Positions 1-64,000 of a DNA stretch of 64,000 bases are shown in pieces; positions within the stretch are counted from its first letter, which is position 1; each line of letters starts with the position of its first letter. This DNA is from a virus (lineage: Duplodnaviria > Caudoviricetes). Location: the IMG/VR virus record IMGVR_UViG_3300020434_000055; one strand, written 5' to 3'. The notes beneath the pieces were generated by a model that had not been told where the DNA came from, made no database searches, and worked only from the letters and a program-made list of their open reading frames with translations. The position numbers and the translations under genes are program-made.

Positions 1-3000
1 GATCCTAATCCAACTAATAGTCCAGATTTAATTGCTGGAAAAATGGTTAGAGGTTTAACTACTCACGCAACAGGAAAAGTAGTTTCTGTAACACAAGGAG
101 CTTCTGTAGATACAGTCCTAGTTGATTTATTAGAACCAAAAACATTTGCAATAGGTGAAAAAGTAGAATTTGCTCAACCAATAAGAGAGAAACATATAGC
201 TATAAAAGTTGAATCAGGCGTATATTACGAAGACCTTCCAATCAAATTACCTGATAACGTTTCTCTTCAAGGTGATGAAATGAGAAGAAGTATTATTAGA
301 CCTCGTGACAGAATTTCTCAATCTCCTTGGGTAAGAATGTATTTTTATAGAGATTTAACATTTGATGGTTTAACAATTGCTACACAAAATTATGGTTATC
401 ACTATTTGTCAGATGCAAATGATAACGCCAGTACTCCTAAAAATAATAAAGAATTAGATATTCTTTTATTAAACAACTCAAGTATTATAAAAAATATAAC
501 ATTCCAAGGACATGGAGGCTTTGCACAGGTATTAGATCCTGAAGGAGCAATTCTTACTAAATCTCCTTATACGTTTGACGCCGCTTGTTATTCTCAATCT
601 ATAAATGCTAAAGCATTTAGAGGTGGAATGTATATTGATGCATTCGCAGGTAATTTACCTACAAAAGTAACTAATGTTGTTAGTCCTTTTATTTTAGACG
701 TAACAAGTGATGCAGGAACAGGTTTAAGAATTAGAAAACCAATGACACCTTGTCCTTTTTATATTGATGGTGATAGATATCAAATTAATGCAATAAAAAA
801 TTATGATCAAGCAAACGGTACAGCTCAATTACTTCTTGACTCTACATCCAATAGTGGTAATGGTTGGACTGGTGCATATTCTCCACCTTATTCTATTAAT
901 GTTCAAACAGCAGGTAATAAATCAGCTTTAGGTCACGCATTTACTCAAATAAATGATTTAGGTTATGGTATAGTTGTTACTAATAGTGGATTATCAGAAT
1001 TAGTATCTTGTTTTACATATTTCTGTCAAACAGGTATGTATGCAAATCAAGGTGGAAAAATAAGATCTTTAAATAGTTCTTGTTGTCATGGAACATACGG
1101 ACTTGTTTCATCAGGCAGTGACCCTAACGAATCTGTTGATCCTATAACATTAACAAGTGACATGGTTCAAACAGCACTAGCCCGAGATGATGGTGCTAGT
1201 CTAACAAATCCTAGTGGAGCATTATCAATTTATGTTTTTGATTTAGATTATGTTGTTACTAATAATTCTGAAGTAGAAGTAGATCACGGTGGAGTAACAG
1301 GTGTTATAAGATATGAAGTTACAACTATTGAAACAACTACGGAAACTGCTCCGGCAAGTACTAGAGATTCAGCAATCTATAAAATTAATTTAGGAACAAG
1401 TGGTAAAAACGAAACATCTACAACAGGATTAAAACAAGCTATTGCAGATGATCAAACAATAACGATTAGAGCAAATTCTCAATTTGTATTTGGTGCTGTA
1501 GATGATCCGTCCCCAACAAAACCTACTACTGCTATAGTTTTTGATGAAACTCCTACAGTAACATATAGAAGTATTTCTTATTCAACATCTAACCCAGTTG
1601 GTGTTGCCTTACCAGCCAATAGTGCCTTAATTGCTTTTGATGATGTTTATGACTATATTAAAGTAGTTGTAAATGATGCAGAAGCTCAAAATAGTACTCA
1701 CGCAGGTGCAGGAACAACAATGGGACATACAGTAGGTGATGTTGTAATTGCAATTGATAAAGTTGCAGAATCAGTAGATATTGCAAGATTAAACAATGGC
1801 GATATGACATTTGGTTGGGATGGTAAAACTCACAAAATTACAAGTTATACAGATAGAACAACATATGCCACAATAGAAATTACAGATGTATCAAATATTA
1901 ATCCTACTCCAATAGGTACAGGAATTCATAGTCCTATGTCAGGATATACTGGAAGTTCTGGTGCTCCTACATTAAGAGTTGGCTTGTCATCTACTGAACC
2001 AGCTACAATTACTGTATTTGTTTCTACACTAAGAGCATCAAATCATGATTTCTTAGATATAGGAACTGGTGGTTGGAATAGTACTAATTTTCCTAATGTA
2101 ATTTATGGAGCTCCAACAACAGCTCCAGCTCAAGCTAATGAAACTTTAGAATTAGATAAAGGAAGAATTTACTATGTTAGTACTGATCAAGATGGTTTCT
2201 TTAGAGTAGGAAAATATTTTACAGTTGATCAAGCCACAGGAACAGTTTCTTTTGCGGCGGCAATTGCAATTAGTAATCTTGATGGTATAGGATTTAAAAG
2301 AGGTGTTGTTGTAGCAGAATTTAGTACAGACGGCTCAATGATTGACAATTCTACTGATACTGTACCAACAGAATCAGCTGTTAGACAATATGTTAATAGA
2401 AGATTAGGTTTTGACCATGCAAATACTTTAGTAGGTAATCCAATTGGTGCAGGTGCAGTTGCTAGAGATGGTTCTGCTCCATTTACAGCAAACGTAGGTG
2501 CAGGTGGACATAAATTAATTGACTTATCAGATCCTTCAGCAGATCAAGATGCCGCTACAAAAAGTTATACAGATAGCATCATATATGAAACAGATCAAAT
2601 TGAAGATATAAGAAATATTAATATTTCTAGTTTAGCTTCAGGTCACCTTTTAGTATTCAATGGAGCATATAGATTATTTTCTAATCCAGCATCAGGTGGA
2701 AATTTTGCGGCAAGTGATGTAATCACTGGTTCTGTTACAGGTGCAACAGGAACAATAACAGAAGTTGAAGTTCTTGTATTACCTGGAGGCGTTAATGCTA
2801 CTAGAATTACTTTTAATTGGACTTCTAGCCCAACAGCTTTCACAACAGCAGATATAATTGACACAGGTGGTGGAGTTACAGCTCAAGTTATTGATGCTCC
2901 TATGAATGAAGTAGCCAATGCTGTAATGTCTGCATCTAGTGATGTTAGTATAACTGCAACTAGAGGAGCAAATGATACTGAAATAGATTTCCAAATAGAA

Positions 3001-4326: not shown

Positions 4327-4541
4327 TGGCACAACAAAATATAAATGTAGGTACAAGTGCAAACAAAGGTGATGGTGATCCATTAAGAACGGCGTTTACT
4401 AAAATAAACTCCAATTTTACTGACGCAGACACTAGAATAGTTGCATTAGAAGATGGAACAATTTCTTTAGCAACTTTAAAATCAGTAGTGGCGGCAAGTA
4501 CAGATTTTAATGATTTTAAAACAAGGGTAGCGGCATTATAG
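4326..4541 (+). CDS. Small virion protein with T4 gp9-like baseplate-connector N-terminal motif
   Basis: MAQQNINVGTSANKGDGDPLRTAFTKINSNF matches the gp9-type INIG..ANDG.GD.LR.AF.K.N.NF motif. Confidence 0.65.
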   Translation: MAQQNINVGTSANKGDGDPLRTAFTKINSNFTDADTRIVALEDGTISLATLKSVVAASTDFNDFKTRVAAL

Positions 4542-4549
4542 GATAGATT

Positions 4550-8101: not shown

Positions 8102-9870
8102 TGTCAATGCCCGATCCAGGTGCTCCACCTAAACAAACTCATAAAGAGTTGCTAGAGAAAAATAAAGAGTTCTTCGCAGAACTACATGAAAAAGATCCAG
8201 ATGATAAATTTGAAACTATTGTTACAGTAAAAAAAGGTATTAACTGGGAAGTACTTCATAATGAACTTACTAGAGATACTACTGCCGATCCAAGTGTAGA
8301 TTCAAATATCATACCAGATAGAACTGTTGATGTTATTAAGTTAAAATCTACTAATAAAAGAAATACTCATTATAATTTAAGTCCTAACGAAGCAAAAAAA
8401 TTAAAAAATGATCCAAGAATCGAAGCCATTGAAGCACCGTTAGATCCAAGGTTTATAATACAACGAAAATATCATGACGGAGGATTTGAAAAAAGTTCAA
8501 GTCATAATAGCAATTATAGAAGAGATAATTGGGGATTATTAAGACATTGTTCTAAAACTAATAATTATGGATCAAGTACTTCAGATCCTGGTGGTTCATA
8601 TGATTATGTTTTAGATGGTACAGGTGTTGATGTTGTGGCTCAAGATTCTGGAGTTGTAATGGGACATCCTGAATGGGAAGATTCAAATGGAGTTAGTAGA
8701 TATGATATGCATGATTGGTATTCGGTATCTGGAATATCTGGAACTCAAGCTAGTAACTTTTATTCATTAACCGATGGTTCTCATGGATCTCATGTTATGG
8801 GAACAATTGCAGGTAAAAACTTTGGTTGGGCAAAAAATTCTAAAATTTACAGTATGAGAATGTTTGGATCTGGTTCTATTGGCGGTTATGATGGTATGGA
8901 CATAATGAGAGGTTGGCATAATAATAAAAATGATCCAAATCATGCTCTATGGACAGGTACACATAGACCAACTGTAGTTAATATGAGTTGGGGGTCTTCT
9001 TACACCTTTTTTGGTGTAGGTGATGACGGGCCCAGTGTTTTTGGTTTCCCAATAACCAGTGGAAATTATCGTGGAAATTCTTATTCTATTAGTAGCAACA
9101 GTGATATGAGAAATAAAGGTTTAAGTTTTTATGGTTATGTTGATTCAATGGATTGGGCCAATGCAGGTATTAATTCTGTCGCTCGAAATGCCGAGGTCGA
9201 GCAAATGATTGATGATGGTATTATTGTATGTATTGCTTCAGGGAATGACGGTCAAAAATGGGATCTTCCTAGTGGAGCAGATTGGGACAATTACGTTACT
9301 TTAGGAGCAAATAGTTATGGCTATCGTCCTGATGATTATTCTCCCTCTATTTGGGATAACCCTTTTTCTGGAAATAAGTATTATTATAATAGAGGAGGCA
9401 GTCCTAATCCGAATTTTAATAGGGCAGGTCAGGCTTTTGTAGTTGGGTCAATTAATTACAATACTTATAGTTCTACTAGGGATAGAAAAAGTCCTTTTAG
9501 TTCTCAAGGTCCGGGAGTTAATATTTGGACGGCAGGTGAAAGGATTATAAGTTGTTCTGACGGCAGTGCAGGCGGACCATACTACCATGATACCAATTAT
9601 TGGCAAGAGAGAATGCAAGGAACATCTATGGCTAGTCCTCAGGCGGCAGGAATGGCGGCTTTAATATTCCAATTGCACCCCGATTGGACACCTAAACAAG
9701 TTGTAAGTTTTATGATTCAAAATGCTATTCAAAGTAACCTTTATTCTTCAAAAGCTAATGGTGGACTAGAAGATGATTATACTAATCATTGGTCTCTATT
9801 TGGTAGTGAAGGTAATGTTGCTTATATACCAATGGCTAATCGTAAACCTTGGAATTGGAGTTCAACTTAA
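8101..9870 (+). CDS. Subtilisin-like S8 serine protease with N-terminal prodomain
   Basis: Catalytic triad motifs VDVVAQDSG (Asp), HGSHVMGTIAG (His), GTSMASPQAAG (Ser); oxyanion region ASGNDG. Confidence 0.9.
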   Translation: MSMPDPGAPPKQTHKELLEKNKEFFAELHEKDPDDKFETIVTVKKGINWEVLHNELTRDTTADPSVDSNIIPDRTVDVIKLKSTNKRNTHYNLSPNEAKKLKNDPRIEAIEAPLDPRFIIQRKYHDGGFEKSSSHNSNYRRDNWGLLRHCSKTNNYGSSTSDPGGSYDYVLDGTGVDVVAQDSGVVMGHPEWEDSNGVSRYDMHDWYSVSGISGTQASNFYSLTDGSHGSHVMGTIAGKNFGWAKNSKIYSMRMFGSGSIGGYDGMDIMRGWHNNKNDPNHALWTGTHRPTVVNMSWGSSYTFFGVGDDGPSVFGFPITSGNYRGNSYSISSNSDMRNKGLSFYGYVDSMDWANAGINSVARNAEVEQMIDDGIIVCIASGNDGQKWDLPSGADWDNYVTLGANSYGYRPDDYSPSIWDNPFSGNKYYYNRGGSPNPNFNRAGQAFVVGSINYNTYSSTRDRKSPFSSQGPGVNIWTAGERIISCSDGSAGGPYYHDTNYWQERMQGTSMASPQAAGMAALIFQLHPDWTPKQVVSFMIQNAIQSNLYSSKANGGLEDDYTNHWSLFGSEGNVAYIPMANRKPWNWSST

Positions 9871-9874
9871 ATCT

Positions 9875-36254: not shown

Positions 36255-36551
36255 ATGATATATTACATTGACATAGACGGAACCATTTGTTATACTAAAG
36301 GTAGCGACTATGACAATAGTAAACCTGATTTAAAAAAAATAAAACAGGTTAATGAATTATATGATAAAGGTCATGAAATTCATTATTGGACTTCTAGAGG
36401 AGGAATGTCTGGAAAAGATTGGTATCTATTTACAATAGCTCAACTTAATGAATGGGGTTGTAAATTTACATCAATTAAATTAGGTAAACCTGTTTATGAT
36501 AAATGGGTTGACGATAAAGCAATAAACGAAAAGGATTTTTTTAATGGCTGA
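36255..36551 (+). CDS. Minimal HAD-family phosphatase
   Basis: YYIDIDGTIC, YWTSRG, GKP..D.WVDDK. Confidence 0.75.
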   Translation: MIYYIDIDGTICYTKGSDYDNSKPDLKKIKQVNELYDKGHEIHYWTSRGGMSGKDWYLFTIAQLNEWGCKFTSIKLGKPVYDKWVDDKAINEKDFFNG

Positions 36552-37038
36552 AGATTATGATAATGTAACGGAAGAATGTTTTACTTCCACTAAGAGTTTT
36601 TGGAACTTTCCTTGTGCTCATAGACAATATAGACACGAAGGCAATTGCCATTTAATTCACGGGTACAGTAGAAGTTTTCATTTTATATTTGGAATTAAAT
36701 CATTTACAAAAGAAGGCTTTGCAGTAGACTACGGTGACTTAGATGAACTAAAAGCACATTTAGATCATATGTACGACCATACATTAGTATTAGATGAAGA
36801 AGATCCATATATGGAAAATTTTAAAGTATTAGAAAAAGCAGGTGTATGTCGAATTAGAACTCATCCAATGGGACCAGGCATGGAAGGTACTGCACATTAT
36901 CTTTGTGATTGGACAGACACATGGTTACGTAAAAAATCACGAGGACGAGCTTGGGTTATTAGTGTAGAAGCTAGAGAAAATGATAAAAATAGTTCAATTT
37001 ATAAAAATCCAAATGCTGGATTTAAAGGCTGGTTATAA
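36544..37038 (+). CDS. queD: 6-carboxytetrahydropterin synthase
   Basis: CAHRQ...[23 protein letters not shown]-fold motifs. Confidence 0.88.
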
Positions 37039-37587: not shown

Positions 37588-38784
37588 ATGAAAATACTTT
37601 GTATACTATACGACGATCCAAAAGACGGAATGCCTACAAGCTATCCAGTTAAGGATCTACCAAAATTAGAAAAATATCCAGACGGAATGACACTACCAAC
37701 ACCTAAAGGCAGAGATTTTACGCCAGGTGATTTATTAGGTTGTGTATCTGGAGAGTTAGGATTAAGAAAATTTTTAGAAGATGCAGGACACACATTAGTT
37801 GTTACATCTGACAAAGACGGAGAAGGTTGTCAAGCAGACAAAGAATTAGTTGATGCTGACGTTGTTATATCACAACCGTTTTGGCCATATTACTTAACAA
37901 GAGAAAAAATGGAAACGGCACCAAATTTAAAAATGGCAATTACAGCAGGTATAGGATCTGACCACGTAGACTTACAAGCGGCAATGGATCGTAAAGTTGA
38001 TGTAGTTGAAGTAACGTATTGTAATTCAAGATCAGTTGCTGAACATATTGTAATGATGATTTTATCTTTAGTAAGAGATTATCACAACCAACACAGAATA
38101 GTAAACGAAGGTGGTTGGCATATTGCAGATGCAGTAAAAAGAAGTTATGATGTTGAAGGTATGCACGTAGGTACTATTGCGGCAGGACGTATTGGTTATG
38201 ATATGTTAAGAAAGATGGCACCATTCGATGTACATCTACATTATTTTGACAAACATAGATTATCTGAAGATAAGGAAAAAGAATTAAATTTAACTTATCA
38301 TGATTCAGTTGAATCTTTAATAGCAGTTTGTGATGTGATTAATATAAGTTGTCCATTACACCCTGAAACAGAACATATGTTTAATGATGATTTAATTAGT
38401 AAATGTAAACCTGGTGCGTATATTATTAATACTGCTAGAGGAAAAATATGTGATAAAGATGCTATTGCGAGAGCATTAGAATCAGGACAATTAAGTGGCT
38501 ATGCTGGAGACGTTTGGTTTCCACAACCAGCACCTAATGACCATGTTTGGAGAAGTATGCCAAACCATGGTATGACACCTCATACATCAGGAACATCACT
38601 ATCAGCACAAACAAGATATGCTGACGGTGTTAGAGAAATATTAGAATGTTTCTTTGATGGTACACCAATAAGAGATCCGTACTTAATTGTACAAAATGGA
38701 GAACTTGCTGGTATGGGTGCTCACTCTTATACAAAAGGAACAGCAACTGGTGGATCAGAAGAAGCGGCTAAATTTAAAAAATAA
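37588..38784 (+). CDS. fdh: NAD-dependent formate dehydrogenase
   Basis: CILYDDP, GELGLRKFLE, SQPFWP, TAGIGSDHVD, AAGRIG, YFDKHRL, NTARG, DVWFPQP, PHTSG: the full set of signatures of the Pseudomonas/Candida-type FDH. Confidence 0.95.
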   Translation: MKILCILYDDPKDGMPTSYPVKDLPKLEKYPDGMTLPTPKGRDFTPGDLLGCVSGELGLRKFLEDAGHTLVVTSDKDGEGCQADKELVDADVVISQPFWPYYLTREKMETAPNLKMAITAGIGSDHVDLQAAMDRKVDVVEVTYCNSRSVAEHIVMMILSLVRDYHNQHRIVNEGGWHIADAVKRSYDVEGMHVGTIAAGRIGYDMLRKMAPFDVHLHYFDKHRLSEDKEKELNLTYHDSVESLIAVCDVINISCPLHPETEHMFNDDLISKCKPGAYIINTARGKICDKDAIARALESGQLSGYAGDVWFPQPAPNDHVWRSMPNHGMTPHTSGTSLSAQTRYADGVREILECFFDGTPIRDPYLIVQNGELAGMGAHSYTKGTATGGSEEAAKFKK

Positions 38785-41346: not shown

Positions 41347-44016
41347 ATGAGTTATATAAATGGCTTCTTCGATAGAAGTCAAGACGTTATAAGAGTAGTA
41401 GAACGCGATAACGGAAAAAGAATTTTCAGAGAATATCCAGTCAAATATACATTTTATTACGAAGATACTCGTGGCAAATTTAAAAGCACTGACGGTAAGT
41501 ATCTAAGTAGAATTGTATGTAAAAATTCAAAAGATTTTCATAAAGAACTTGCAATTAATAGAAATAAAAATTTATACGAATCCGATATTAATCCTATTTT
41601 CCAATGTTTAAGTGAAAATTATCTCAATCAAAATGCTCCAGATTTAAAAATTGCTTTCTTTGATATAGAAGCAGACTTTGATCCTGAAAAAGGTTTTGCT
41701 TTACCAAGTGATCCTTTTATGCCAGTAACTGCTATTTCAATTTACTTACAATGGCTAGACAGCCTTGTAACTTTTGCTTTACATCCTAAAAATATGACAA
41801 TAGCACGAGCAAAAGAATCTGTAAAAAAATTTAAGAATGTACATTTATATGATGACGAAACAAAAATGATGACAGATTTTTTAGACATCCTAGAAGATGT
41901 TGATGTATTAAGTGGTTGGAATAGTGAAGGGTATGATCTTCCATATTTAATTAATAGAATATCTAAGATAATGAGCAAAGATGATACTAGACGTTTTTGT
42001 TTATGGAAACAATTACCTAAGAAACGAGAATTTGATAGATTTGGAAGAACGCAAGAAACATATGATTTAATCGGTCGTGTACATTTAGATAGTTTAGAAC
42101 TTTATAGAAAATACACATATGAAGAACGACATTCTTATAGATTAGATGCAATTGGTGACCACGAACTAGGAGAAACAAAAACTGTATATGAAGGATCTTT
42201 AGATCAATTATATAACGATGACTTTGCAAAATTTATTGAGTACAATAGACAAGACGTTGTATTATTAGATAAACTAGATAAAAAATTCAAATTTATATCT
42301 TTAACTAATGAACTTGCACATCAAAATACTGTATTACTACAAACCACATTAGGAGCAGTTGCAGTAACAGAACAAGCTATTATTAACGAAGCTCATAAAA
42401 GAGGTGTACAAGTACCTAATAGAATTAAACGTGAATCTCACTCAACAGAATCGGCGGCAGGTGCTTATGTGGCATATCCTAAAAAAGGATTACACAATTG
42501 GATTGGTGCAATGGATATAAAATCTCTATATCCTTCAGTAATTAGAGCATTGAATATGGCTCCTGAATGTATTGTTGGACAATTAAAACCTGTAGACACA
42601 GATGCGTATATAGAAGAACAAATGACATTACAAAAAAAATCATTTGCGGCGGCTTGGGAAAATCATTTTGGAACATTAGAATATGAAGCAGTAATGAAAG
42701 AAAGAAAAGATGTTTTAATTACTGTAAACTGGGAAGATGGTAAAACAGAAACAATGAGTGGAGCCCAAATTTACAAAATGATATTTGATACTAATGCTCC
42801 TTTAATGTTAAGTGCTAATGGTACAATATTTACAAGTGACTTTGAAGGTGTAATACCTGGATTATTAAGAAAATGGTACGACGAAAGATCTCATCTTCAA
42901 GAAATGAGACAAAAGGCTGTAAATGCTAAAAACTTTGCAGAAATAGAATTTTGGGATAAAAGACAACTTGTTAAAAAAATTAATCTTAATTCATTATACG
43001 GTGCCATATTAAATCCTGGCTGTAGATTTTTTGATAAAAGAATAGGGCAATCAACGACATTATCTGGTAGACAAATTACTAAACATATGGCGGCTAAAAT
43101 TAATGAAGTAACAACTGGAACGTATGATTATTTAGGAAAAGCAGTAATATACGGAGATACAGATTCAGCATATTTTTCAGCATATCCTATATTAAAAAAA
43201 GAAATAGAAACAGGTGAAATACCTTGGACTAAAGAAAGTGTTATCAAATTATATGATAAAGTTGCTGAAGAAGTTAATACTAGTTTTAAAAAATTTATGT
43301 TAAAAGCATTCCATTGTCCTAAAAATAGAGCAGATGTTATTACAGCAAGTAGAGAATCAGTTGCAGAAACAGGACTTTTTATTACTAAAAAAAGATATGC
43401 AGTATTAAATTATGAAGTAGAAGGAAATAGACACGATATAGAAGATAAATCTGGTAAAGTAAAAGCAATGGGTTTAGATTTAAAAAGATCTGATACTCCT
43501 GCGTTTGTACAAGATTTTTTAAGTGAATTATTATTAATGGTATTAACTAAAAAAACAGAAAAAGAAGTTTTAGAAAAAATTACTAAATTTAGAATTGATT
43601 TTAAACAAAGACCTGGTTGGGAAAAAGGATCTCCAAAAAGAGTAAACAATCTTGTAGAATATGTAAGAAAAGAGCAAAGACAAGGCAAAGCTAATATGCC
43701 AGGACACGTTAGAGCAAGTATGAACTGGAATAATCTTAAAAGAATGAACGGTGACAAACATTCTATGGAAATAGTAGACGGTATGAAAGTAATTGTATGT
43801 AAACTTAAAAAGAATCCATTAGAATATACATCTGTTTCATATCCAACGGATCAACTACGTATTCCAAAATGGTTTAAAGAATTACCTTTTGATGGTGACG
43901 CAATGGAATCTACTTTAATTGATAATAAATTAGGAAACTTACTAGGAGAACTAAACTGGGATATTCAATCAACTGAACAACATAATACTTTCAGTTCAAT
44001 GTTTGAATTTGAATAA
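41347..44016 (+). CDS. polB: Family B DNA polymerase (gp43-like)
   Basis: Exo I FDIE, Exo II GWNSEGYD, region II DIKSLYPS, region III KINLNSLYG, region I YGDTDS. Confidence 0.97.
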   Translation: MSYINGFFDRSQDVIRVVERDNGKRIFREYPVKYTFYYEDTRGKFKSTDGKYLSRIVCKNSKDFHKELAINRNKNLYESDINPIFQCLSENYLNQNAPDLKIAFFDIEADFDPEKGFALPSDPFMPVTAISIYLQWLDSLVTFALHPKNMTIARAKESVKKFKNVHLYDDETKMMTDFLDILEDVDVLSGWNSEGYDLPYLINRISKIMSKDDTRRFCLWKQLPKKREFDRFGRTQETYDLIGRVHLDSLELYRKYTYEERHSYRLDAIGDHELGETKTVYEGSLDQLYNDDFAKFIEYNRQDVVLLDKLDKKFKFISLTNELAHQNTVLLQTTLGAVAVTEQAIINEAHKRGVQVPNRIKRESHSTESAAGAYVAYPKKGLHNWIGAMDIKSLYPSVIRALNMAPECIVGQLKPVDTDAYIEEQMTLQKKSFAAAWENHFGTLEYEAVMKERKDVLITVNWEDGKTETMSGAQIYKMIFDTNAPLMLSANGTIFTSDFEGVIPGLLRKWYDERSHLQEMRQKAVNAKNFAEIEFWDKRQLVKKINLNSLYGAILNPGCRFFDKRIGQSTTLSGRQITKHMAAKINEVTTGTYDYLGKAVIYGDTDSAYFSAYPILKKEIETGEIPWTKESVIKLYDKVAEEVNTSFKKFMLKAFHCPKNRADVITASRESVAETGLFITKKRYAVLNYEVEGNRHDIEDKSGKVKAMGLDLKRSDTPAFVQDFLSELLLMVLTKKTEKEVLEKITKFRIDFKQRPGWEKGSPKRVNNLVEYVRKEQRQGKANMPGHVRASMNWNNLKRMNGDKHSMEIVDGMKVIVCKLKKNPLEYTSVSYPTDQLRIPKWFKELPFDGDAMESTLIDNKLGNLLGELNWDIQSTEQHNTFSSMFEFE

Positions 44017-44017
44017 T

Positions 44018-44554
44018 ATGGCTACACACGGAATGATAGACTTGGAAACTTTAGATACTACACCTAATGCTACGATTCTTACATTAGGAGCAGTTAAATT
44101 TAATCCTTATAATAGTCAAACACCTCATACTGATTTATATCTAAAAGTAGATGTAGATGTACAAACAAAAATGGGAAGAATTGTAAATGATTCTACAATA
44201 GAGTGGTGGGGACAACAAAATAAAGAAGTTAGAGAAGATGCATTTGCAGAACAAGGAAGAATTAGTTTAGAAGAGTTAACAAAAACTCTTAACAAATGGT
44301 GCGTAGGATTAGATGAACTTTGGTGCCAAGGTCCATTATTTGACTACGCAATATTACAAAATTTATATGCACAATTAGAAAAACCTGTGCCTTGGGCTTA
44401 TTGGCAAATTAGAGACTCTAGAACAGTACTCAATATGTTGCCAAAAGATATGAGAAAAGGTCCTAGAACAGATGTTCACAATGCTTTGGCTGATTGCAAA
44501 TATCAAGCTAGAGCTATTCAAAAGGCATATAGATATTTTGGAGTTCAAAAATAA
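44018..44554 (+). CDS. DEDDh 3'-5' exonuclease
   Basis: MIDLET, FD..IL, HNALADC. Confidence 0.85.
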   Translation: MATHGMIDLETLDTTPNATILTLGAVKFNPYNSQTPHTDLYLKVDVDVQTKMGRIVNDSTIEWWGQQNKEVREDAFAEQGRISLEELTKTLNKWCVGLDELWCQGPLFDYAILQNLYAQLEKPVPWAYWQIRDSRTVLNMLPKDMRKGPRTDVHNALADCKYQARAIQKAYRYFGVQK

Positions 44555-44615: not shown

Positions 44616-45344
44616 ATGAAAAGTATCTTACAAGATATTGTTGCTCATACACATTCCTTAGGATTTTTAAGTTTAGTAAAAATCTCGAATGATGAGAAAA
44701 CAAAAATAGAAAGTATGGCTGAAGATCGTTCAGTTATATTAAGTGCAAATACCAATGACAAAGTAGACGAGTTTGATGGTATTTTTGGAATGCCTAATTT
44801 AGACAAATTAGCACTTCACTTAAAATGTCCAGAGTATGACAAAAATGCAAAATTAAATGTTGTGTCTTCTGTTAGAAATGGAAAAAAGGTCCCAACTAAT
44901 ATTCACTTTGAAAACGAAAAAGGTGATTTTCAAAATGATTATAGATTTATGAGTACTGAAATTATTAACGAGAAATTAAAATCTGTTAAATTTAAAGGTA
45001 CTGCTTGGGACATAGAGTTTGAACCTAGCATAGCGGCAATTCAAAGATTAAAATTGCAGGCGGCGGCTCACGTAGAAGAAACTGTATTCACAGTAAAAAC
45101 AGAAAATAAAAGTTTAATGTTTTATTTTGGTGATGCAAATTCTCACGCAGGAAACTTTGTGTTTCATAATGATGTAGGAATGGATCTTAAAAAGAACTGG
45201 AGTTGGCCTATTCAACAAGTTATTAGTATATTAAGTCTTGATGGAAGAATGAAAATGAAAATTTCTGATCAAGGAGCAATGCAAATAACTGTAGATAGTG
45301 GTGTTGGGGAATACAATTACATTTTACCAGCTCAAACAAAATAA
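44616..45344 (+). CDS. Probable sliding clamp (gp45-like)
   Basis: Size 242 aa, two-domain beta/alpha pattern, position next to polB; weak sequence evidence. Confidence 0.55.
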   Translation: MKSILQDIVAHTHSLGFLSLVKISNDEKTKIESMAEDRSVILSANTNDKVDEFDGIFGMPNLDKLALHLKCPEYDKNAKLNVVSSVRNGKKVPTNIHFENEKGDFQNDYRFMSTEIINEKLKSVKFKGTAWDIEFEPSIAAIQRLKLQAAAHVEETVFTVKTENKSLMFYFGDANSHAGNFVFHNDVGMDLKKNWSWPIQQVISILSLDGRMKMKISDQGAMQITVDSGVGEYNYILPAQTK

Positions 45345-45354: not shown

Positions 45355-46818
45355 TTGAACACAGACTTAACAAAAGTTCAGAAAGATTGGGCGGTATTCT
45401 TGCCAGCGATGAGTAGTTTCTTCGCGAGAGATATAGGAAAAGCAAAACACGAAGATGATTATGTACTTCCTGAAAGAGTTCCTAAAAAGTTTGAACACGG
45501 AATCCAAGGTTTAAATTATATAGAACCAAAGGATACGTATTTTAACTATAAATGGAATTTATATTCCGCAGGTCACGCCGATTTGAATATGACAAAGTTT
45601 AGTGTTAGAGATGACATTATTAGAAATAGAAATAGAGCTAATAATTGGTTACTTGGAGACTCAGGTGGTTTCCAAATAGGTAAAGGTGTATGGGAAGGAG
45701 ATTGGAAAGATCCTGCTTGTCCTAAAGCAAGAAAGAAACGAGAACAAGTATTAACATGGTTAGATGCTAATATGGACTATGGAATGATATTAGATATTCC
45801 AGCTTGGGTTTCGAGATCACCCGAAGGTGCTAAAGCTAGTAATATTAATAGCTATCAAGAAGCTGTTAATGGTACAAAAATAAACAATGATTATTTTATG
45901 AAAAATAGAAAAGGTGATTGTAAGTTTTTAAATGTATTACAAGGTGAAAATTTCCAACAAGCAGACGATTGGTATGCACAAATGAAAGACTATTGTGATC
46001 CTAAAAAATATCCTAGTACACATTTTAATGGTTGGTCAATGGGTGGACAAAATATGTGTGATATACATCTTGCATTAAAGAGACTTGTAGCACTACGTTT
46101 TGATGGATTACTTGAAAAAGGTGTTCATGATGTTGTACACTTTTTAGGAACATCTAAACTTGAATGGGCAGTACTTTTAACAGATATACAAAGAGCTATA
46201 AGAAAATATCACAATCCAAATCTTATGATTACATTTGATTGTGCTTCTCCGTTTTTAGCTTGTGCCAATGGTCAAATTTATATTGATATCGAAATAAAAG
46301 ATAGAAAAAAATGGGTATACAGAATGCAGGCAAGTGCAGATAATAAAAAATATAAACCTGATCCCAGAACGTTTAAAGATGCTGTACTTGAAGAAAAAAT
46401 ATTTAAAAGTTTTAGAGATAGTCCAATTAGTAAAAGATTAATGCTTGATGATGTATGTTGTTATTCTCCTGGAGAATTAAACAAAATGAAAAATGATCCA
46501 AAAACTAGTTGGGATTCATTTAGTTACACTTTACAAATGGCTCACAATGTTTGGATGCATATTACAGCAGTACAAGAAGCCAATGAAGCATATGACAAAG
46601 GAATATATCCAAGTATGTTATTACAAGAACAATTTGATAGAGTTGCTTTTAAAGATATTGTAGAGGCAATATTTGCAACTAGTAATAGAGACGAAGCAAA
46701 TGCAGTAATTGAAGAATTTTCAAGATACTGGATGTCAATTATAGGAACAAGGGGGGCGACAGGCAAGAAAACAGTGAACGCAAGTACACAATTTGCTAAT
46801 TTATTTGAGGAGGAATAA
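45355..46818 (+). CDS. dpdA: Guanine transglycosylase (TGT fold), DpdA-like DNA base-exchange enzyme
   Basis: DSGGFQ, MILDIP, VLQG, GWSMGG, HFLG, FDCASP motifs; TTG start after AAGGAG; near folE/queE. Confidence 0.8.
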   Translation: MNTDLTKVQKDWAVFLPAMSSFFARDIGKAKHEDDYVLPERVPKKFEHGIQGLNYIEPKDTYFNYKWNLYSAGHADLNMTKFSVRDDIIRNRNRANNWLLGDSGGFQIGKGVWEGDWKDPACPKARKKREQVLTWLDANMDYGMILDIPAWVSRSPEGAKASNINSYQEAVNGTKINNDYFMKNRKGDCKFLNVLQGENFQQADDWYAQMKDYCDPKKYPSTHFNGWSMGGQNMCDIHLALKRLVALRFDGLLEKGVHDVVHFLGTSKLEWAVLLTDIQRAIRKYHNPNLMITFDCASPFLACANGQIYIDIEIKDRKKWVYRMQASADNKKYKPDPRTFKDAVLEEKIFKSFRDSPISKRLMLDDVCCYSPGELNKMKNDPKTSWDSFSYTLQMAHNVWMHITAVQEANEAYDKGIYPSMLLQEQFDRVAFKDIVEAIFATSNRDEANAVIEEFSRYWMSIIGTRGATGKKTVNASTQFANLFEEE

Positions 46819-54135: not shown

Positions 54136-54141
54136 AACATT

Positions 54142-54819
54142 ATGAAAACATCTGAAAAAATTAAACAAAGATTAATAGACAAAAAAATACGTTTTTTTGC
54201 TAATGATAACATATCTAAACATATAGAAAAAGGCGAATTAAAAGATTTAGAAGTAGAAATAGAAGAAGCATTTGAAGATATATTAGATGCTTTAGTAATT
54301 GATACTGAAAACGATCATAATTCAAAAGAAACTGCTAAACGTGTAGCAAAAATGTACATCAATGAAATATTTTCAGGAAGATATGTTTCTCCTCCAAAGA
54401 TTACATCATTTCCAAATATGGGATATAAAAGTTTATATACAAGTGGTCCAATTAGTGTTAGATCAACCTGTGCTCACCATTTTCAAAACATTGTAGGAAA
54501 TTGTTGGGTAGGAGTATTACCTGAAGATGAAGTTATAGGTTTAAGTAAATTTAATAGAATTGTACACCATATTTCAGAAAGACCACAAATACAAGAAGAA
54601 CTGACTTTACAAATTTCTGAATCATTATCGAAATATGCTAAAACACCAAATGTAGCAGTAGTAGTCAAAGCAAAACATCATTGTTTAACTCAACGTGGTG
54701 TAAAAGAATCTGAAAATGATATGACCACCGCAGTTATGTTAGGAGCATTTGATACCCATGCTCCACTTAAAAAAGAATTTTATGATATATGTTTTAGTAT
54801 GAAAGGACATAGCATTTAG
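54142..54819 (+). CDS. folE: GTP cyclohydrolase I
   Basis: TAKRVAKMY, STCAHH, GLSKFNR, RPQIQE, HHCLTQRG. Confidence 0.95.
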   Translation: MKTSEKIKQRLIDKKIRFFANDNISKHIEKGELKDLEVEIEEAFEDILDALVIDTENDHNSKETAKRVAKMYINEIFSGRYVSPPKITSFPNMGYKSLYTSGPISVRSTCAHHFQNIVGNCWVGVLPEDEVIGLSKFNRIVHHISERPQIQEELTLQISESLSKYAKTPNVAVVVKAKHHCLTQRGVKESENDMTTAVMLGAFDTHAPLKKEFYDICFSMKGHSI

Positions 54820-54826
54820 GTGAGAA

Positions 54827-55690
54827 ATGGAATCAAATGAATTTAGAGTTACTGAAGCATTTATTTCAGTACAAGGTGAAGGCAGATTTGTAGGTGTACC
54901 TAGTGTATTTTTACGATTGTTTGGTTGTAATTTTAAATGTCGTGGCTTTGGAATGCCGAAAGGTCAATTAGCAGACGATTATTTAAAAGTAGATGCAAAT
55001 GATCCTAAATATAAAACACTTAAAGATTTACCTTTAGTGCATCGAGGATGTGATAGTTATGCATCATGGGACGCAAGATTTAGAAAGTTTACAAAAGATT
55101 ATAATGTTGAACAATTAGTTGAAAAATTATTATCTTTAACACCAGAAGGTAAGTGGACTTGTACAAACGGACAAGATATACATCTTGTTATAACAGGAGG
55201 AGAACCTTTATTAGGATGGCAAAGACTTTATGTTGACTTGTTTGAACATCCTAGAATGAAAGATTTAAAAAATGTTACATTTGAAACGAATACTACACAA
55301 CCTATCAGAGAAAATTTATTGGAGTGGACAAAAACGCAGGATAGAATACATATTACGTTTTCGTGCTCTCCGAAACTTACCGTTTCCGGAGAACGTTGGG
55401 AAGATGCTATCAAACCCAGTGTTGCTAAAAATTACTATGACACTCCCAATAGTCATTTGTATTTCAAATTTGTTGTCTGTGACAATGGCGATATTGAAGA
55501 AGTTTCAAAAGCTGTTGAACTTTATTCAAAAGCAGGTATTAGTTGTCCAGTCTACTGTATGGCCGTTGGTGGCTGTTATGAAGAGTACCAAGAAAACGCA
55601 AAAAATGTTACCGAACTCGCAATGCAAAAAGGATGGAGATATAGTCCAAGATTGCACGTCGATATTTTCGGAAACGAATGGGGAACTTAA
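54827..55690 (+). CDS. queE: 7-carboxy-7-deazaguanine synthase (radical SAM)
   Basis: SVQGEG, RLFGCNFKC...CDS, VITGGEP, ETN, CSPK, YSPRLH. Confidence 0.92.
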   Translation: MESNEFRVTEAFISVQGEGRFVGVPSVFLRLFGCNFKCRGFGMPKGQLADDYLKVDANDPKYKTLKDLPLVHRGCDSYASWDARFRKFTKDYNVEQLVEKLLSLTPEGKWTCTNGQDIHLVITGGEPLLGWQRLYVDLFEHPRMKDLKNVTFETNTTQPIRENLLEWTKTQDRIHITFSCSPKLTVSGERWEDAIKPSVAKNYYDTPNSHLYFKFVVCDNGDIEEVSKAVELYSKAGISCPVYCMAVGGCYEEYQENAKNVTELAMQKGWRYSPRLHVDIFGNEWGT

Positions 55691-55712
55691 AAAGGAAGGA
55701 GAAAAATAACAT

Positions 55713-56108: not shown

Positions 56109-56111
56109 TGC

Positions 56112-57812: not shown

Positions 57813-57930
57813 TATAGACATCTATAACGGCGTTTCGAAATCATTAACTTAATACTTTTATTACACAAAAGAAGATTTATTACGATAAATATAGTATAAA
57901 GGTGTAAAAGAAAAGGGCATAGTAAAAGTT

Positions 57931-58610: not shown

Positions 58611-58636
58611 TCCAAAAATTCTCGGTAAATTAATAT

Positions 58637-59230: not shown

Positions 59231-59260
59231 TCTATGCGGGTCATTTAAGCTTCTTTTCAT

Positions 59261-59289
59261 TTGACTTAATTACCAAAAGGTGCTATTAT
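59261..59289 (+). promoter_or_regulatory. Sigma70-type promoter (MoxR-VWA)
   Basis: TTGACT-17-TATTAT with TG. Confidence 0.7.
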
Positions 59290-59324
59290 TAATAATAAAC
59301 CAATTGTATTAAAAGGAGTACATA

Positions 59325-60443
59325 ATGGCACGAAGCAAACACACACAATCACAAGATTCTAGTTTAGCAACTAGACAATTAAGTCCAAATAAAGCAAAGG
59401 CAAGTATTTTACACGCCTTAAAAATCAAAAGACCAATCTTTTTATGGGGTGGTCCAGGTATTGGTAAATCTGACGTTGTTCGTCAAATTGCAGGAACTAT
59501 CAATGCTCATGTAATAGATATTAGATTAAGTTTATGGGAACCAACAGATATTAAAGGTATTCCATATTTTAATAGCAAATCAGAATCAATGGAATGGGCA
59601 TCTCCTTCAGAATTACCAAATGAAAAGATGTCTAAAAAGCACAAAAACATAATTCTATTTTTAGACGAAATGAATTCCGCGGCTCCAAGTGTTCAAGCGG
59701 CGGCTTACCAATTAATATTGAATAGAAAAGTAGGTACTTACGAACTACCAGAAAATGTTATGATAGTGGCGGCGGGTAATAGAGAAGCAGATAAAGGTAT
59801 TACTTACAGAATGCCGGCTCCATTAGCAAATAGATTCATCCATTTAGAAATGAAACCAGTATTTGACGATTGGTTTGAATGGGCAGTAGAAAATAACATT
59901 AACAAAGACGTTATAGGTTATCTGACTTTTAGCAAAAAAGATCTATATGATTTTGAACCAAAATCTTCTAATAGATCATTTGCTACTCCGAGATCTTGGT
60001 CATTTGTAAGTGAACTCTTATCAGATGATTTAGATGAAAACACTGTGACTGATTTAGTCAGCGGTGCTGTCGGCGAAGGACTTGCAGTTAAGTTCATGGC
60101 CCACAGAAAAGTGGCATCACAACTTCCTAACCCTTCTGATATTTTAGATGGTAAAGTAGAGAAGTTAAAAAGTAAAGAAATAAGTGCAATGTACTCCCTA
60201 ACTGTTTCTTTATGTTATGAACTAAAAGAGGCAAGTGATAAAAAAGATAAGAAGTTTAACGACAAAGTTGGAAAATTTCTTAGATTTATGATGGACAATT
60301 TTGACACTGAATTAGTTGTAATGGGTATTAAATTAGCTCTTACACAATATCAGTTACCTTTTGATCCTGATGCAATCAAATGCTTCGATGAGTTTCATGA
60401 AAAATACGGCAAGTATATTACAGCCGCTCAAAGCGCCGATTAA
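59325..60443 (+). CDS. MoxR-like AAA+ ATPase
   Basis: GGPGIGKS, LFLDEMN, AAGNR, LANRF, TPRSW. Confidence 0.88.
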   Translation: MARSKHTQSQDSSLATRQLSPNKAKASILHALKIKRPIFLWGGPGIGKSDVVRQIAGTINAHVIDIRLSLWEPTDIKGIPYFNSKSESMEWASPSELPNEKMSKKHKNIILFLDEMNSAAPSVQAAAYQLILNRKVGTYELPENVMIVAAGNREADKGITYRMPAPLANRFIHLEMKPVFDDWFEWAVENNINKDVIGYLTFSKKDLYDFEPKSSNRSFATPRSWSFVSELLSDDLDENTVTDLVSGAVGEGLAVKFMAHRKVASQLPNPSDILDGKVEKLKSKEISAMYSLTVSLCYELKEASDKKDKKFNDKVGKFLRFMMDNFDTELVVMGIKLALTQYQLPFDPDAIKCFDEFHEKYGKYITAAQSAD

Positions 60444-60450
60444 GTGTTTC

Positions 60451-60480
60451 GTTATAGGGTGCTCTCGGGTGCCCTATAAC
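60451..60480. other. Strong intercistronic hairpin
   Basis: GTTATAGGG...CCCTATAAC perfect 9-bp arms extended by G-U pairs; no U-tract follows. Confidence 0.6.
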
Positions 60481-60491
60481 ATAAAGGATTT

Positions 60492-61775
60492 ATGCCAGTA
60501 GCAACAAAAACAAAAACTAAAAAAATTAAAAAAATTAAAGAACCACCAGTTTTAAAACTCTCTGATGAAGAATATAGACAAATGAGAGCAGAAGTATTAG
60601 ATAAAATAATTGTAGCAAGAGTTGGACTATTATTAAGACATCCTTTCTTTGGTAATATGGCTACTAGATTACAAATAAAAGAATGTGATGATTGGTGTCC
60701 TACGGCGGCTACTGATGGTAGACACTTATATTATAATACAGAATTTTTTCACAAATTAAGCACTAAAGAAATTGAATTCGTAATAGGTCACGAAATATTA
60801 CATTGTGTTTTTAATCATTTACAAAGAAACGAAAATAGAAATAGAATGCTCTATAATATTGCGGCAGACTATCTAGTTAATAATACTTTATGTAGAGACA
60901 ATATAGGTGAAAAACCTAAAGGTATTCAAATATTTCAAGATTACAAATATGATGGATGGAGTTCTGAAGAAGTATATGATGACTTATTTAAAAATGCTAA
61001 AAAAATTGATATAAGCAAATTAGGAAAACTATTAGATGAACATATTGATTGGGAAAAAGGTCCTAATGGTAGTTCAGGTGGTAAGGATAAAAATGGTAAA
61101 AATAAACAACCTATAATAAGCAAAAAAGAAATGGAAAAAATTCAAAACGAAATTAAAGAGGGTATAATGCAATCAGCCCAAGCGGCAGGCCCAGATCATT
61201 TACCTGAAGAAATTGAAAGAATGATTAAAGATTTTGCTAATCCTAAAATGGATTGGAGAGAAATATTACAACAACAAATACAAAGTGTTATAAGAAACGA
61301 CTATACTTTTGCTAGACCTTCTAGAAAGGCTTGGCATTCAGGTATAATTTTACCAGCAACAGATTACGAAAAAACAATAGATATTTGTGTAGCAATAGAC
61401 ACATCAGGTTCTATTGAAGAACGACAATTAAAAACTTTTTTAAGTGAAATTCAAAGTATTATGGATCAATATAAAGATTATAATATTAAAATATGGTCTT
61501 TTGATACTAAAGTTTATAATGAACAAGACTTTACTGCTAGTGATGGTAATTTAGAAGACTATGACGCTAAAGGCGGCGGTGGAACAGATTTCATGGCAAA
61601 TTGGAGATATATGAAAGATAATGATATAGTTCCAAAAAAACTAATAGTATTCACAGATGGTTATCCTTGGGACGATTGGGGAGATCCTGATTATTGCGAT
61701 ACTATTTGGGTTCTTCATGAACATCAAAACAAAAACTTTGAAGCACCTTTTGGTATAACAACGCACTATGAATAA
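60492..61775 (+). CDS. Metallopeptidase-like/VWA-domain protein (MoxR partner)
   Basis: TAATDG, HEILH (HExxH), VAIDTSGS (MIDAS), GGGTDF, FTDG. Confidence 0.85.
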   Translation: MPVATKTKTKKIKKIKEPPVLKLSDEEYRQMRAEVLDKIIVARVGLLLRHPFFGNMATRLQIKECDDWCPTAATDGRHLYYNTEFFHKLSTKEIEFVIGHEILHCVFNHLQRNENRNRMLYNIAADYLVNNTLCRDNIGEKPKGIQIFQDYKYDGWSSEEVYDDLFKNAKKIDISKLGKLLDEHIDWEKGPNGSSGGKDKNGKNKQPIISKKEMEKIQNEIKEGIMQSAQAAGPDHLPEEIERMIKDFANPKMDWREILQQQIQSVIRNDYTFARPSRKAWHSGIILPATDYEKTIDICVAIDTSGSIEERQLKTFLSEIQSIMDQYKDYNIKIWSFDTKVYNEQDFTASDGNLEDYDAKGGGGTDFMANWRYMKDNDIVPKKLIVFTDGYPWDDWGDPDYCDTIWVLHEHQNKNFEAPFGITTHYE

Positions 61776-62062
61776 TGTTTCCAAAAACTAATATACCAAA
61801 TCCACTAAACTTTCTTAATTGTAGAAAATTTAATAAAAAACCAAAAGGAATGGAATTTATAGAAATTCTTAATTCTAGTCCTGACTCTGACAAACTAATA
61901 GAACAGTGGGTTATACAAAATTTAAAAAGTAGATACTATATTGGTAAACATATCAAAGTAAGCAAAACAGACAATCTCATACATTCTTTTTTGGTAGGAT
62001 TCGAAGATCCAAAAGAGATGAGTATATTCAATTTAAGTTGCCCTCACATTAAACTTCATTAA
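61775..62062 (+). CDS. Hypothetical protein
   Basis: Coupled ORF. Confidence 0.45.
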   Translation: MFPKTNIPNPLNFLNCRKFNKKPKGMEFIEILNSSPDSDKLIEQWVIQNLKSRYYIGKHIKVSKTDNLIHSFLVGFEDPKEMSIFNLSCPHIKLH

Positions 62063-62107
62063 ATATCTTCGTATACAATTAATAACAAATACGGAGAACA
62101 TATTAAT

Positions 62108-62440
62108 ATGACTGAGCAAACCAAAACAGATGCGGCAAAACAAACAACCGCACCAGCCGGTCCCGTTGGTCCAGATGGATCGAAAGGACAAATTGCTGGA
62201 GATTTGACTGTCCAAGATTTAGGAATAATCAAATCTATAATTGATGCGGCTTGCCAAAGAGGAGCATTTAAGGCAAATGAAATGCAGGCTGTTGGCGCCA
62301 CATATAATAAATTAGAATCTTTCTTAAACGTTGTACAAGCACAACAAAAAGATTTAACAAAAGATTCTAAAGGAACACCGGCTACTGCAACTGCAAAAGC
62401 CGATGCAAATGTTAATACACAGGTAGGAGGAAAAAAATAA
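62108..62440 (+). CDS. Hypothetical protein
   Basis: GGAG RBS. Confidence 0.55.
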   Translation: MTEQTKTDAAKQTTAPAGPVGPDGSKGQIAGDLTVQDLGIIKSIIDAACQRGAFKANEMQAVGATYNKLESFLNVVQAQQKDLTKDSKGTPATATAKADANVNTQVGGKK

Positions 62441-62982
62441 TGGCTGATCTTAAACACGTTGGACGACTTAAAGGCGGAGAACAAAAAGTTGTTGTAGTTT
62501 ATAGAACAATACCAGGCGATTCTAAATCTGCACTTGTAATAGAAACGGCAAAAATAGGTGCTAGTCCACACGACGCATTAATGAAAGTTGTCGAATCTAA
62601 TGAAGGTCAAACTTCTTTTGAACTTTACGAAGTTTTACAAAGAAGTAGATTACCAAGTGGTGATTTAATGTTGAATTCATTTCACACAAATGGCTTCATG
62701 AATAAAGTAGCTACAACTGAAATAGAAATGACACCAAATGCGAATACAGTTGTTCAATTAGATGAATTGAATAAAATTATCGCAACACAAAAAGGTGTAT
62801 CTATAGAAGAACTTGCTGTAAAAGGTACTACAGTTGAAGCAACTGTGCCTGCAGGTACTAAAGCTAATTTAACAGATAATCAAATCGCTGGAAAAATGAG
62901 AAGCGATGCTGATAGATTCTATAAAGAAGCCGCAAAATTAAGAAAAGACGCAGAAGCATTATCACCAACTAAAAAGAAGTAA
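62440..62982 (+). CDS. Hypothetical protein
   Basis: Coupled ORF. Confidence 0.55.
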   Translation: MADLKHVGRLKGGEQKVVVVYRTIPGDSKSALVIETAKIGASPHDALMKVVESNEGQTSFELYEVLQRSRLPSGDLMLNSFHTNGFMNKVATTEIEMTPNANTVVQLDELNKIIATQKGVSIEELAVKGTTVEATVPAGTKANLTDNQIAGKMRSDADRFYKEAAKLRKDAEALSPTKKK

Positions 62983-62988
62983 GATAAC

Positions 62989-63318
62989 GTGTCTGTCGTG
63001 GTGAAGTTTAATAAAAAGAAACTGCCCAAGGATGTGGTAGCTAGTTGGCCCGAAGTTTTTTCTGATTTAAATGTAGAAACAATTCCTGTCCAATATCTGT
63101 TATCAATAAAAGTATCCTTTAAAGATGGCAAAAATTGGGATATTAGGGTTAAACCTAATAGAAAAAACTTCACCAATGCTGACTTAGAACATACCTTAAC
63201 CGACCTATTTGCCACCCACGCAGGTACTATAAAAAACGTAGATTTTCGTCTAGACACTCAAAAAATTAAAAGAGACATCCAAAAACGCACTCATAGGTTC
63301 ATAAAGAAGAACAAATAG
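62989..63318 (+). CDS. Hypothetical protein (GTG start)
   Basis: ORF in operon context. Confidence 0.5.
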   Translation: MSVVVKFNKKKLPKDVVASWPEVFSDLNVETIPVQYLLSIKVSFKDGKNWDIRVKPNRKNFTNADLEHTLTDLFATHAGTIKNVDFRLDTQKIKRDIQKRTHRFIKKNK

Positions 63319-63396
63319 CAAAGCCTGTATTATGGTACCTGTGATAAATATCATAAATACATAGTAAGATAGGTATATTAAGGAGTAGCATTAAAA

Positions 63397-64000
63397 ATGG
63401 CATTTCAAGTAAGAAGAGGAAACACTACTGAAAGAGGAACAATCACACCTGCTGAAGGTGAGATAATCTACGATACACTATTAAAAAAGTTATTTGTAGG
63501 AGATGCTTCAACAGTAGGTGGTAATGCAGTAGATACTACAGTCTCAGCAGTATTCGCCAATATTGATGCGGATATGACTCCCGACTTACATAATACTCAC
63601 GACATAGGAACATCCGCTAAAAAATGGAAAGAATTCCATGGAGTAACATTTAACGATGGTACTGCTACAATAACAGGTGGAGTTGGTACAGGTTTTTCTT
63701 CTATTTCTTCAACTAACTTTGTAGGTAATACTGCAGGTGTTCACACTGGTGATACAGGTGGAGGTACACATACTGGTGCTGTAACTGGTGATGTTTTAGG
63801 AAACGTAACTGGTAACGTTTTAGGTGATATAACTGGTGATGTTTTTGATAATTCTGGTACTTTTAAAAGAGTAGATAAAGCTAATCCAATTATTTCTAAT
63901 AGTAAGATTTCTTTAAACGACAATATAATTGAATTACTAGGAGCCGGCAATTACGAACTAGTCCTTGGCAGAGATAATTCTGCTGATGGTATTGGAATTA
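63397..64000 (+). CDS. Tail fibre protein, 3'-truncated (not in ORF track)
   Basis: MAFQVRRGNTTERGTITPAEGEIIYDTLLKKLFVGD is a typical fibre N-terminus; G(N/D)VTG repeats; AAGGAG RBS and late promoters upstream. Confidence 0.75.
   Translation, partial: MAFQVRRGNTTERGTITPAEGEIIYDTLLKKLFVGDASTVGGNAVDTTVSAVFANIDADMTPDLHNTHDIGTSAKKWKEFHGVTFNDGTATITGGVGTGFSSISSTNFVGNTAGVHTGDTGGGTHTGAVTGDVLGNVTGNVLGDITGDVFDNSGTFKRVDKANPIISNSKISLNDNIIELLGAGNYELVLGRDNSADGIGI

Follow-up and report, generated by a model that had tools for sequence, protein, structure and literature searches.

How does the genome of an AT-rich phage come to hold not one copy of a five-base word that its own coding sequence should have generated some 41 to 49 times? 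The question is raised by 64,000 bases of the tailed-phage record IMGVR_UViG_3300020434_000055 (Duplodnaviria; Caudoviricetes), here called the window and analysed over its whole length. The window has a G+C content of 32.3%, its genes lie nearly all on the plus strand, and the word GCWGC (GCAGC and GCTGC, W being A or T) is missing from it altogether. An earlier note, made from the letters by eye, had claimed complete avoidance of this word, with rare alanine codons forced into every Ala-Ala pair, and had proposed two possible causes: a host restriction system, or a phage-encoded nuclease that destroys host DNA.

Absence of GCWGC from the window

By direct count both GCAGC and GCTGC number zero between positions 1 and 64,000, whichever strand or frame is read, against 41-49 copies expected under three null models. 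Dinucleotide shuffles of the window gave an expectation of 40.8 +/- 6.3, and 500 within-gene synonymous-codon shuffles gave 48.8 +/- 3.1 (range 39-58). A maximal-order Markov model gave 49.1, under which GCWGC is the most under-represented 5-mer of the window (z = -7). Frame-0 Ala-Ala pairs account for 46.5 of the expected sites (about 95%), and all 58 such pairs in the window begin with GCG (45) or GCC (13), none with GCA or GCT. Among the 1,229 alanine codons without a following alanine, GCA (671) and GCT (420) together make up 89%, GCC (102) and GCG (36) forming the remaining tenth or so; more than half of the GCG codons of the window fall within Ala-Ala pairs. Since every Ala-Ala pair begins with GCG or GCC, the sister word GCSGC (S being G or C) is over-represented, with 62 copies against 13.7 +/- 3.1 in the synonymous-codon shuffles.

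The pattern can be read directly in individual genes, all on the plus strand. An Ala-Ala-Ala run is written GCG GCG GCA at 2254..2262, two Ala-Ala pairs at 9643..9660 are written GCGGCA and GCGGCT, and GCG GCG GCT occurs within the DNA polymerase gene (42646..42654), in the gene that follows an exonuclease gene (45060..45068) and at 59697..59705. The gene after the exonuclease had been called a "clamp" in the earlier note; it matches PHROG 12062, a family of unknown function. All six examples given there (at 2254, 9643, 9655, 42646, 45060 and 59697) read as described, and the other words it had seen do occur: GATC 196 times, GANTC 150, CCWGG 59, GGWCC 32, CAGCTG 4 and CTGCAG 8. Its central claims, of complete avoidance, of GCG or GCC at the head of every Ala-Ala pair and of strong selection against a site of the TseI/ApeKI type, are fully supported by the counts. 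The observed/expected ratio of GCWGC is 0 and GCSGC is enriched; neither a near-expected frequency of GCWGC nor an equality between GCS usage at Ala-Ala pairs and genome-wide GCS usage was found.

GCWGC is a short, (quasi-)palindromic word and a known restriction specificity, namely the site of TseI (PMC3643589) and of ApeKI (PMC8557920), both of which are accompanied by 5-methylcytosine methyltransferases. TseI is 378 aa long (PMC3643589), and M.ApeKI methylates GCWGC and not GCSGC (PMC8557920). The explanation that we regard as very likely is ordinary restriction-site avoidance, exerted by strain-variable Type II systems of a host that is probably SAR86. The word would then be the target of a restriction endonuclease which the phage lineage often meets in its hosts. 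Such an enzyme may be an orthodox Type II enzyme of the TseI/ApeKI type, or one of the BbvI type; enzymes of the latter kind recognise GCAGC, which amounts to the same word set on two strands. A phage genome with a site would be cut on entry into a host carrying the system, and each site-removing mutation would be favoured until none were left. In an AT-rich coding genome, nearly all potential sites would be Ala-Ala pairs (GCW GCN), and these pairs would all begin with GCG or GCC because either as first codon is the sole synonymous escape. Some sites would probably have been removed by amino-acid replacement instead.

Avoidance acts on DNA, not on translation

The concentration of the expected sites in frame-0 Ala-Ala pairs is also what one might look for in a translational codon-pair effect, or in a mutational bias acting on Ala-Ala, with no nuclease involved. 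The two kinds of explanation can be told apart outside frame 0. Coding sequence from four avoiding phages was pooled (222 kb) and compared with a synonymous-shuffle null, which predicts 198 copies of GCWGC in frame 0 and, in frames 1 and 2, 8.5 and 8.0 copies; the observed count is zero in all three, so that 16.5 copies are missing from frames 1 and 2 together. The same null fits phages that do not avoid the word, as in a complete relative (G005) with 536, 107 and 89 copies in the three frames against 534, 89 and 72 expected. GCAGC and GCTGC are reverse complements of each other, and the avoidance covers both strands. As frames 1 and 2 are likewise free of sites, the avoidance targets the DNA word and not a codon-pair preference.

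Other evidence concurs. In each of the avoiders all Ala-Ala pairs (100%) begin with GCS, whereas close relatives that share their codon usage lack this bias (14-22%, against baselines of 9-22%). The change at the centre of the word is from W to S, which is not a deamination product, and unrelated words are avoided by different relatives (see below). The codon-pair or mutational explanation is effectively refuted.

An artefact of sequencing or assembly, for instance through modification-induced miscalls at GCWGC, is just as hard to credit. Methylated GCWGC is indeed reported to give rise to nanopore errors. However, the stretch from 36 to 46 kb recurs almost verbatim in 20 public runs from nine studies, and contigs from four of these studies agree across 30-50 kb. 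Relatives of the phage, and host DNA, show normal counts in similar data sets. Among the variants listed for the stretch, none that creates GCWGC lies outside the formate dehydrogenase gene described next. To the phage copy of that gene, metagenome contigs of its cellular homologues map as well, at >=90% identity, and the apparent depth is inflated 10-30-fold.

A captured gene purged of the word

The NAD-dependent formate dehydrogenase (FDH) gene at 37588..38784 (+) is of SAR86-type origin, with 91% amino-acid identity to SAR86 genes. Its protein is 90-91% identical to FDH of the SAR86 cluster and 86-87% identical to FDH of Pelagibacteraceae, and it falls within a supported set of 17 sequences, 12 of which are labelled SAR86 (99% by the Shimodaira-Hasegawa-like approximate likelihood ratio test, SH-aLRT). 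No counterpart was found in any of 80 related phage loci, and the gene is therefore a recent acquisition. Eighty cellular FDH genes carry a mean of 3.1 GCWGC each, and the word stands at the conserved Ala-Ala positions nt 390, 591 and 1176 in 45, 67 and 56 of them, respectively. The phage gene has GCGGC at 37978, 38179 and 38764, which are exactly these three positions.

The cellular DNA around the FDH genes is without GCWGC avoidance, with 561 copies against 560 expected in SAR86 and 278 against 300 in Pelagibacteraceae, and no palindrome avoidance was found there in either SAR86 or SAR11 DNA. Normal word counts in host DNA would be expected if the hosts were protected by methylation.

The FDH gene suggests SAR86 as the host or, at any rate, as the donor of the gene, and the host is probably a SAR86-clade gammaproteobacterium. 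C5 methyltransferases are encoded in 56 of 266 genomes of the SAR86 order, roughly 33 of them being located here (loci L232-L265), and several of their genes adjoin unannotated open reading frames (ORFs) of 266-362 aa. Among the nuclease-like neighbours most have no NCBIfam or Pfam family; the exception is an Hpy99I-like His-Me-finger nuclease, paired with a C5 methyltransferase in one genome of the order (G015, locus L236). In another SAR86 genome (G018, contig 1, 22-36 kb; locus L235) an AIPR abortive-infection protein stands beside two C5 methyltransferases, which flank a 186-aa unknown ORF, and a PD-(D/E)XK_3 protein is also present. Judged by their predicted gene content, both loci are SAR86 defence islands. 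Restriction-modification systems of the right general kind are thus common in the candidate host.

Distribution of the trait among related phages

By polymerase similarity the phage would be a T4-related jumbo phage. Its nearest cultured phages on this measure are the Rak2-like, Atu_ph07 and Phosso jumbo phages (43-47% identity), and no close DNA match to the window was found among sequenced phages. Four IMG/VR contigs (G001-G004; 60-105 kb each) are 78-89% identical to it in DNA and reach about 70 kb past the window. Each has zero GCWGC against 47-85 expected. Altogether, about 390 kb of DNA from relatives at 80-89% identity lacks the word.

For more distant relatives the family B DNA polymerase gene (41347..44016, +) served as the marker on which the trait was mapped: 80 loci around this gene were fetched and GCWGC was counted in each. 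Every relative with a polymerase identity of >=73% has a count of zero, while at 68-72% identity the count is zero in some, at its full expectation in others and intermediate in a few. Two clades of the polymerase tree are uniformly free of the word: clade A, which joins the window with 21 contigs (22 in all), and clade B, with 15 contigs. A third avoider, locus L097 with its 31-kb contig G010 (0 against 37 expected), is nested among members with normal counts; its sister G011 has 69 copies against 72 expected, and the complete 357-kb relative G005 has 770 against 863. The approximately unbiased (AU) test rejects a tree on which the zero-state rows form one clade (p = 1e-7), the tested grouping having been chosen after the tree was seen. 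The loss of GCWGC is lineage-specific and changeable on this tree, being found in two clades and one isolated lineage.

The alanine codons follow the same division. In G005 and a further non-avoider, G007, the share of GCS-first Ala-Ala pairs equals each phage's own baseline, and in G011 it is 21% against a baseline of 10%. One 165-kb IMG/VR contig (G009; loci L132-L140) stands half-way, with 101 copies of the word against 217 expected and 57% of its Ala-Ala pairs GCS-first. The two states are interspersed along it (107 runs against 111 expected), which looks like gradual change, be it gain or loss of the avoidance, and not like a few recombined blocks.

The proteins themselves may carry a trace of the avoidance. 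The Ala-Ala dipeptide stands at 0.67-0.71 of its expectation in clade A (the window and G001-G004), compared to 1.2-1.27 in the non-avoiders G005, G007 and G011. This depletion suggests that some sites were also removed through amino-acid change, and is a possible imprint of the avoidance of a DNA word on protein composition.

Other forbidden words

GCWGC is one of several words that have been purged within the family. Clade B, besides its zero GCWGC, has no CTAG (35 expected) and about one AGCT (33 expected), and a second subclade of clade A lacks both GCWGC and AGCT (0 against 20-30 expected of the latter). CATG is down to one copy of 100 expected in G011, one of 48 in L109 and none of 48 in L110. 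GTAC is missing from L094 (0 of 26), GTWAC from L051 (0 of 29), AGCT from L107 and L085, and CTAG from L106 and L073. Even the complete relative with normal GCWGC, G005, has no AGCGCT (26 expected) and two GTGCAC (55 expected). Up to three different words are purged per relative. TGCA is also seen among the purged palindromes of the family (polymerase loci L031-L110; G005, G011 and G013).

Lineage-specific sets of missing 4-6-bp palindromes are to be expected if the Type II enzymes of the hosts vary from strain to strain, and no single phage-borne function would readily account for a mosaic that runs through the whole family. The subclade of the window itself is partly depleted in CATG, at about half of the expectation (96 against 193 in the window, 150 against 344 in G001), as well as in GCGC (4 against 22) and GGATCC (2 against 13), which probably reflects weaker or older restriction pressures.

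Some other words are also scarce in the window. TAAATA/TATTTA (51 against 120) and TAATTA (34 against 68) are strongly under-represented, a scarcity that fits the reservation of T4-type late-promoter words. CTTA/TAAG is low as well (425 against 675).

A nuclease of the phage or a methylation mark as unlikely alternative causes

The second cause proposed in the earlier note was a site-specific nuclease of the phage. In this scenario the phage would encode a methylase-free GCWGC endonuclease that shreds host DNA, and would protect itself by having no sites, a possibility that we hold to be remote. In its fuller and equally improbable form, the avoiders would carry the endonuclease in the unseen 60% or so of their genome, and would cut the small SAR86 chromosome with it about every 500 bp so as to salvage the nucleotides. 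The lineages with full counts and the half-decayed G009 would then be descendants that had lost the gene. A trait that is all-or-nothing is compatible with this scenario, and so is a host DNA rich in GCWGC, with a site about every 500 bp in SAR86. The phage records are compatible with it as well: no DNA methyltransferase of PF00145, PF01555 or PF02086, and hence no protective one, was found above threshold in 13 related phage records, the complete G005 included. Self-methylation is therefore not the defence of this family, non-avoiders included.

The genes that might supply such a nuclease were sought among those peculiar to the avoiders. Of 570 avoider ORFs, 119 have no match in non-avoider DNA; those common to clades A and B encode only a 98-aa HAD-like protein and an SGNH-like protein. 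A Pfam scan of 34 representatives of the avoider-specific ORFs gave a single nuclease-like match, PF24608 ("phage putative PD-(D/E)XK endonuclease"), at G001:14207-14749 (locus L013/L266), which by homology lies about 57 kb past the end of the window. This gene is found in clade A and was not found in the complete non-avoider G005, and its relatives in IMG/VR include those in eight clade A contigs, all with zero GCWGC. However, a copy with 54% identity resides in a 76-kb contig (L276) where GCWGC is as frequent as expected (33 against 33.7) and no further word is forbidden, and PF24608 was rejected as the agent on this ground.

The gene directly after the polymerase was considered as well. It encodes a DEDD 3'-5' exonuclease of the Rv2179c-like kind (44003..44554, +; PF16473, E = 3.8e-37), and occupies this place in clades A and B and otherwise only in L085. 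It is absent there from the independent avoider G010; in the remaining relatives the place after the polymerase is empty or taken up by 2.4-2.8 kb of different genes, and a homologue occurs elsewhere in non-avoider DNA. As an exonuclease and not a site-specific endonuclease, it too was rejected. No gene neighbouring the polymerase is common to the three avoiding lineages and yet absent from the non-avoiders, and in the roughly 40% of an avoider genome that was covered, the search yielded no nuclease gene with a distribution matching that of the trait. A phage nuclease is further disfavoured by the up to three purged words per relative, which would need several separate enzymes, and by the half-purged G009, which fits only as decay after loss of the gene.

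In another alternative, GCWGC would be avoided as a methylation target: a host methyltransferase would mark the phage DNA, and a modification-dependent nuclease of the next host, of the BisI type or another Type IV enzyme, would cut it. Enzymes of the BisI family are reported to cut methylated GCNGC (PMC4926085, PMC11347163). Solitary GCWGC methyltransferases are known from aquatic bacteria (M.AbaBS3I, PMC6329791; marine Chloroflexi, PMC8919816), and C5 methyltransferases are common in SAR86. Nevertheless, two host components are required here instead of one, and the purging of AGCT, CTAG, CATG and GTAC would need a matching modification-dependent enzyme for each word, which renders the proposal unlikely.

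Restriction by the host thus fits best of the two causes first proposed, and the phage-encoded nuclease is weakened, because close lineages each purge a different short palindrome and because the sole avoider-specific nuclease-like gene found is also present in a relative with normal GCWGC. Several points nevertheless weigh against host restriction. Elimination across so deep a divergence (polymerases within clade A are down to 78% identity) would require an enzyme that is persistently common in the hosts. No GCWGC-specific restriction system was identified in any candidate host. The assignment of the host rests on one captured gene, to which SAR11 FDH is also 86-87% identical. Finally, the accessible part of an avoider genome amounts to about 40%, which leaves room for a phage-borne agent.

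Genes for a putative deazaguanine pathway

The earlier note had assumed that the phage modifies its DNA with a deazaguanine. A 487-aa protein encoded at 45355..46818 (+) resembles tRNA-guanine transglycosylase (TGT) and DpdA. No Pfam, PHROG or PDB sequence match was found for it, yet its LGDSGGFQ motif is invariant across 16 orthologues, and its AlphaFold model (predicted local distance difference test, pLDDT, of 83) matches tRNA-guanine transglycosylase with E = 2e-6, a probability of 1.0 and template-modelling (TM) scores of 0.42-0.55. On the strength of the model, it would be a very divergent member of the TGT fold. FolE (GTP cyclohydrolase I) and a QueE-like radical SAM protein are encoded at 54142..55690 (+; PHROG 2197, E = 7e-51, and PHROG 2076, E = 8e-50), both part of the pathway to the 7-deazaguanine precursor, and a QueD-like 6-pyruvoyl-tetrahydropterin synthase at 36544..37038 (+; PF01242, E = 5e-18; PHROG 2389, E = 5e-30). 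Together with the predicted TGT fold, the FolE, QueD and QueE genes make the premise plausible.

The TGT-like gene is found in avoiders and non-avoiders alike, and was rejected as the cause of the trait for that reason. Sites containing G are still purged, which suggests that any such modification does not protect them; if the DNA is modified, the deazaguanine would seem to give no blanket protection.

Comparison with known systems

Complete or near-complete elimination of restriction sites, mainly those of orthodox Type II systems, has been described for roughly one viral genome in ten (PMC6286503). The lytic double-stranded DNA phages of that survey (Rusinov et al. 2018, PMC6286503) resemble the present case in that a short Type II word is eliminated synonymously, in that no protective methyltransferase appears in the available records, and in that the avoided words vary among related phages. 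They differ in that the host here is a candidate and the enzyme a putative one, and in that several hundred sites had to go from the genome of an uncultured jumbo phage, about 350 kb in length. The word, moreover, is here a 5-bp, W-centred one, the cost of which falls nearly all on Ala-Ala. The TseI/ApeKI (G^CWGC) systems have exactly the avoided word set as their target and leave untouched GCSGC, which is enriched here; their characterised enzymes come from Thermus and Aeropyrum, whereas the candidate host is SAR86.

A model for the rival phage nuclease is found in the chloroviruses, whose own restriction endonucleases degrade host DNA while cognate methyltransferases protect the DNA of the virus. 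The likeness lies in a virus-borne, site-specific nuclease directed against host DNA; unlike in the chloroviruses, no DNA methyltransferase and no trait-tracking nuclease was found here. A search of the literature turned up nothing on these phages or on phages that avoid GCWGC, and on GCWGC in marine microbes it gave only the methylation motifs of Chloroflexi.

Significance

The present work surveys the absence of one restriction site from a marine phage lineage and its relatives. The mechanism proposed is a textbook one, and restriction-site avoidance, being already known, is not surprising by itself. This case stands out for the genome's size, for a W-centred 5-mer that puts its cost on one dipeptide, for the rewriting of a captured gene and for a mosaic of forbidden words across the family. 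As a natural experiment, the lineage shows selection on synonymous sites with unusual clarity: one dipeptide bears almost the whole cost, a captured host gene has been rewritten at exactly the predicted positions, and Ala-Ala is depleted in the oldest avoiding clade.

The missing palindromes of each lineage form a possible barcode of the restriction repertoires of its host strains. The phage family is abundant and uncultured, and we know of no cultured phage of SAR86. As a readable record of host restriction enzymes, the barcode of forbidden words could serve to assign each phage lineage to its host strains, probably of SAR86, directly from metagenomes.

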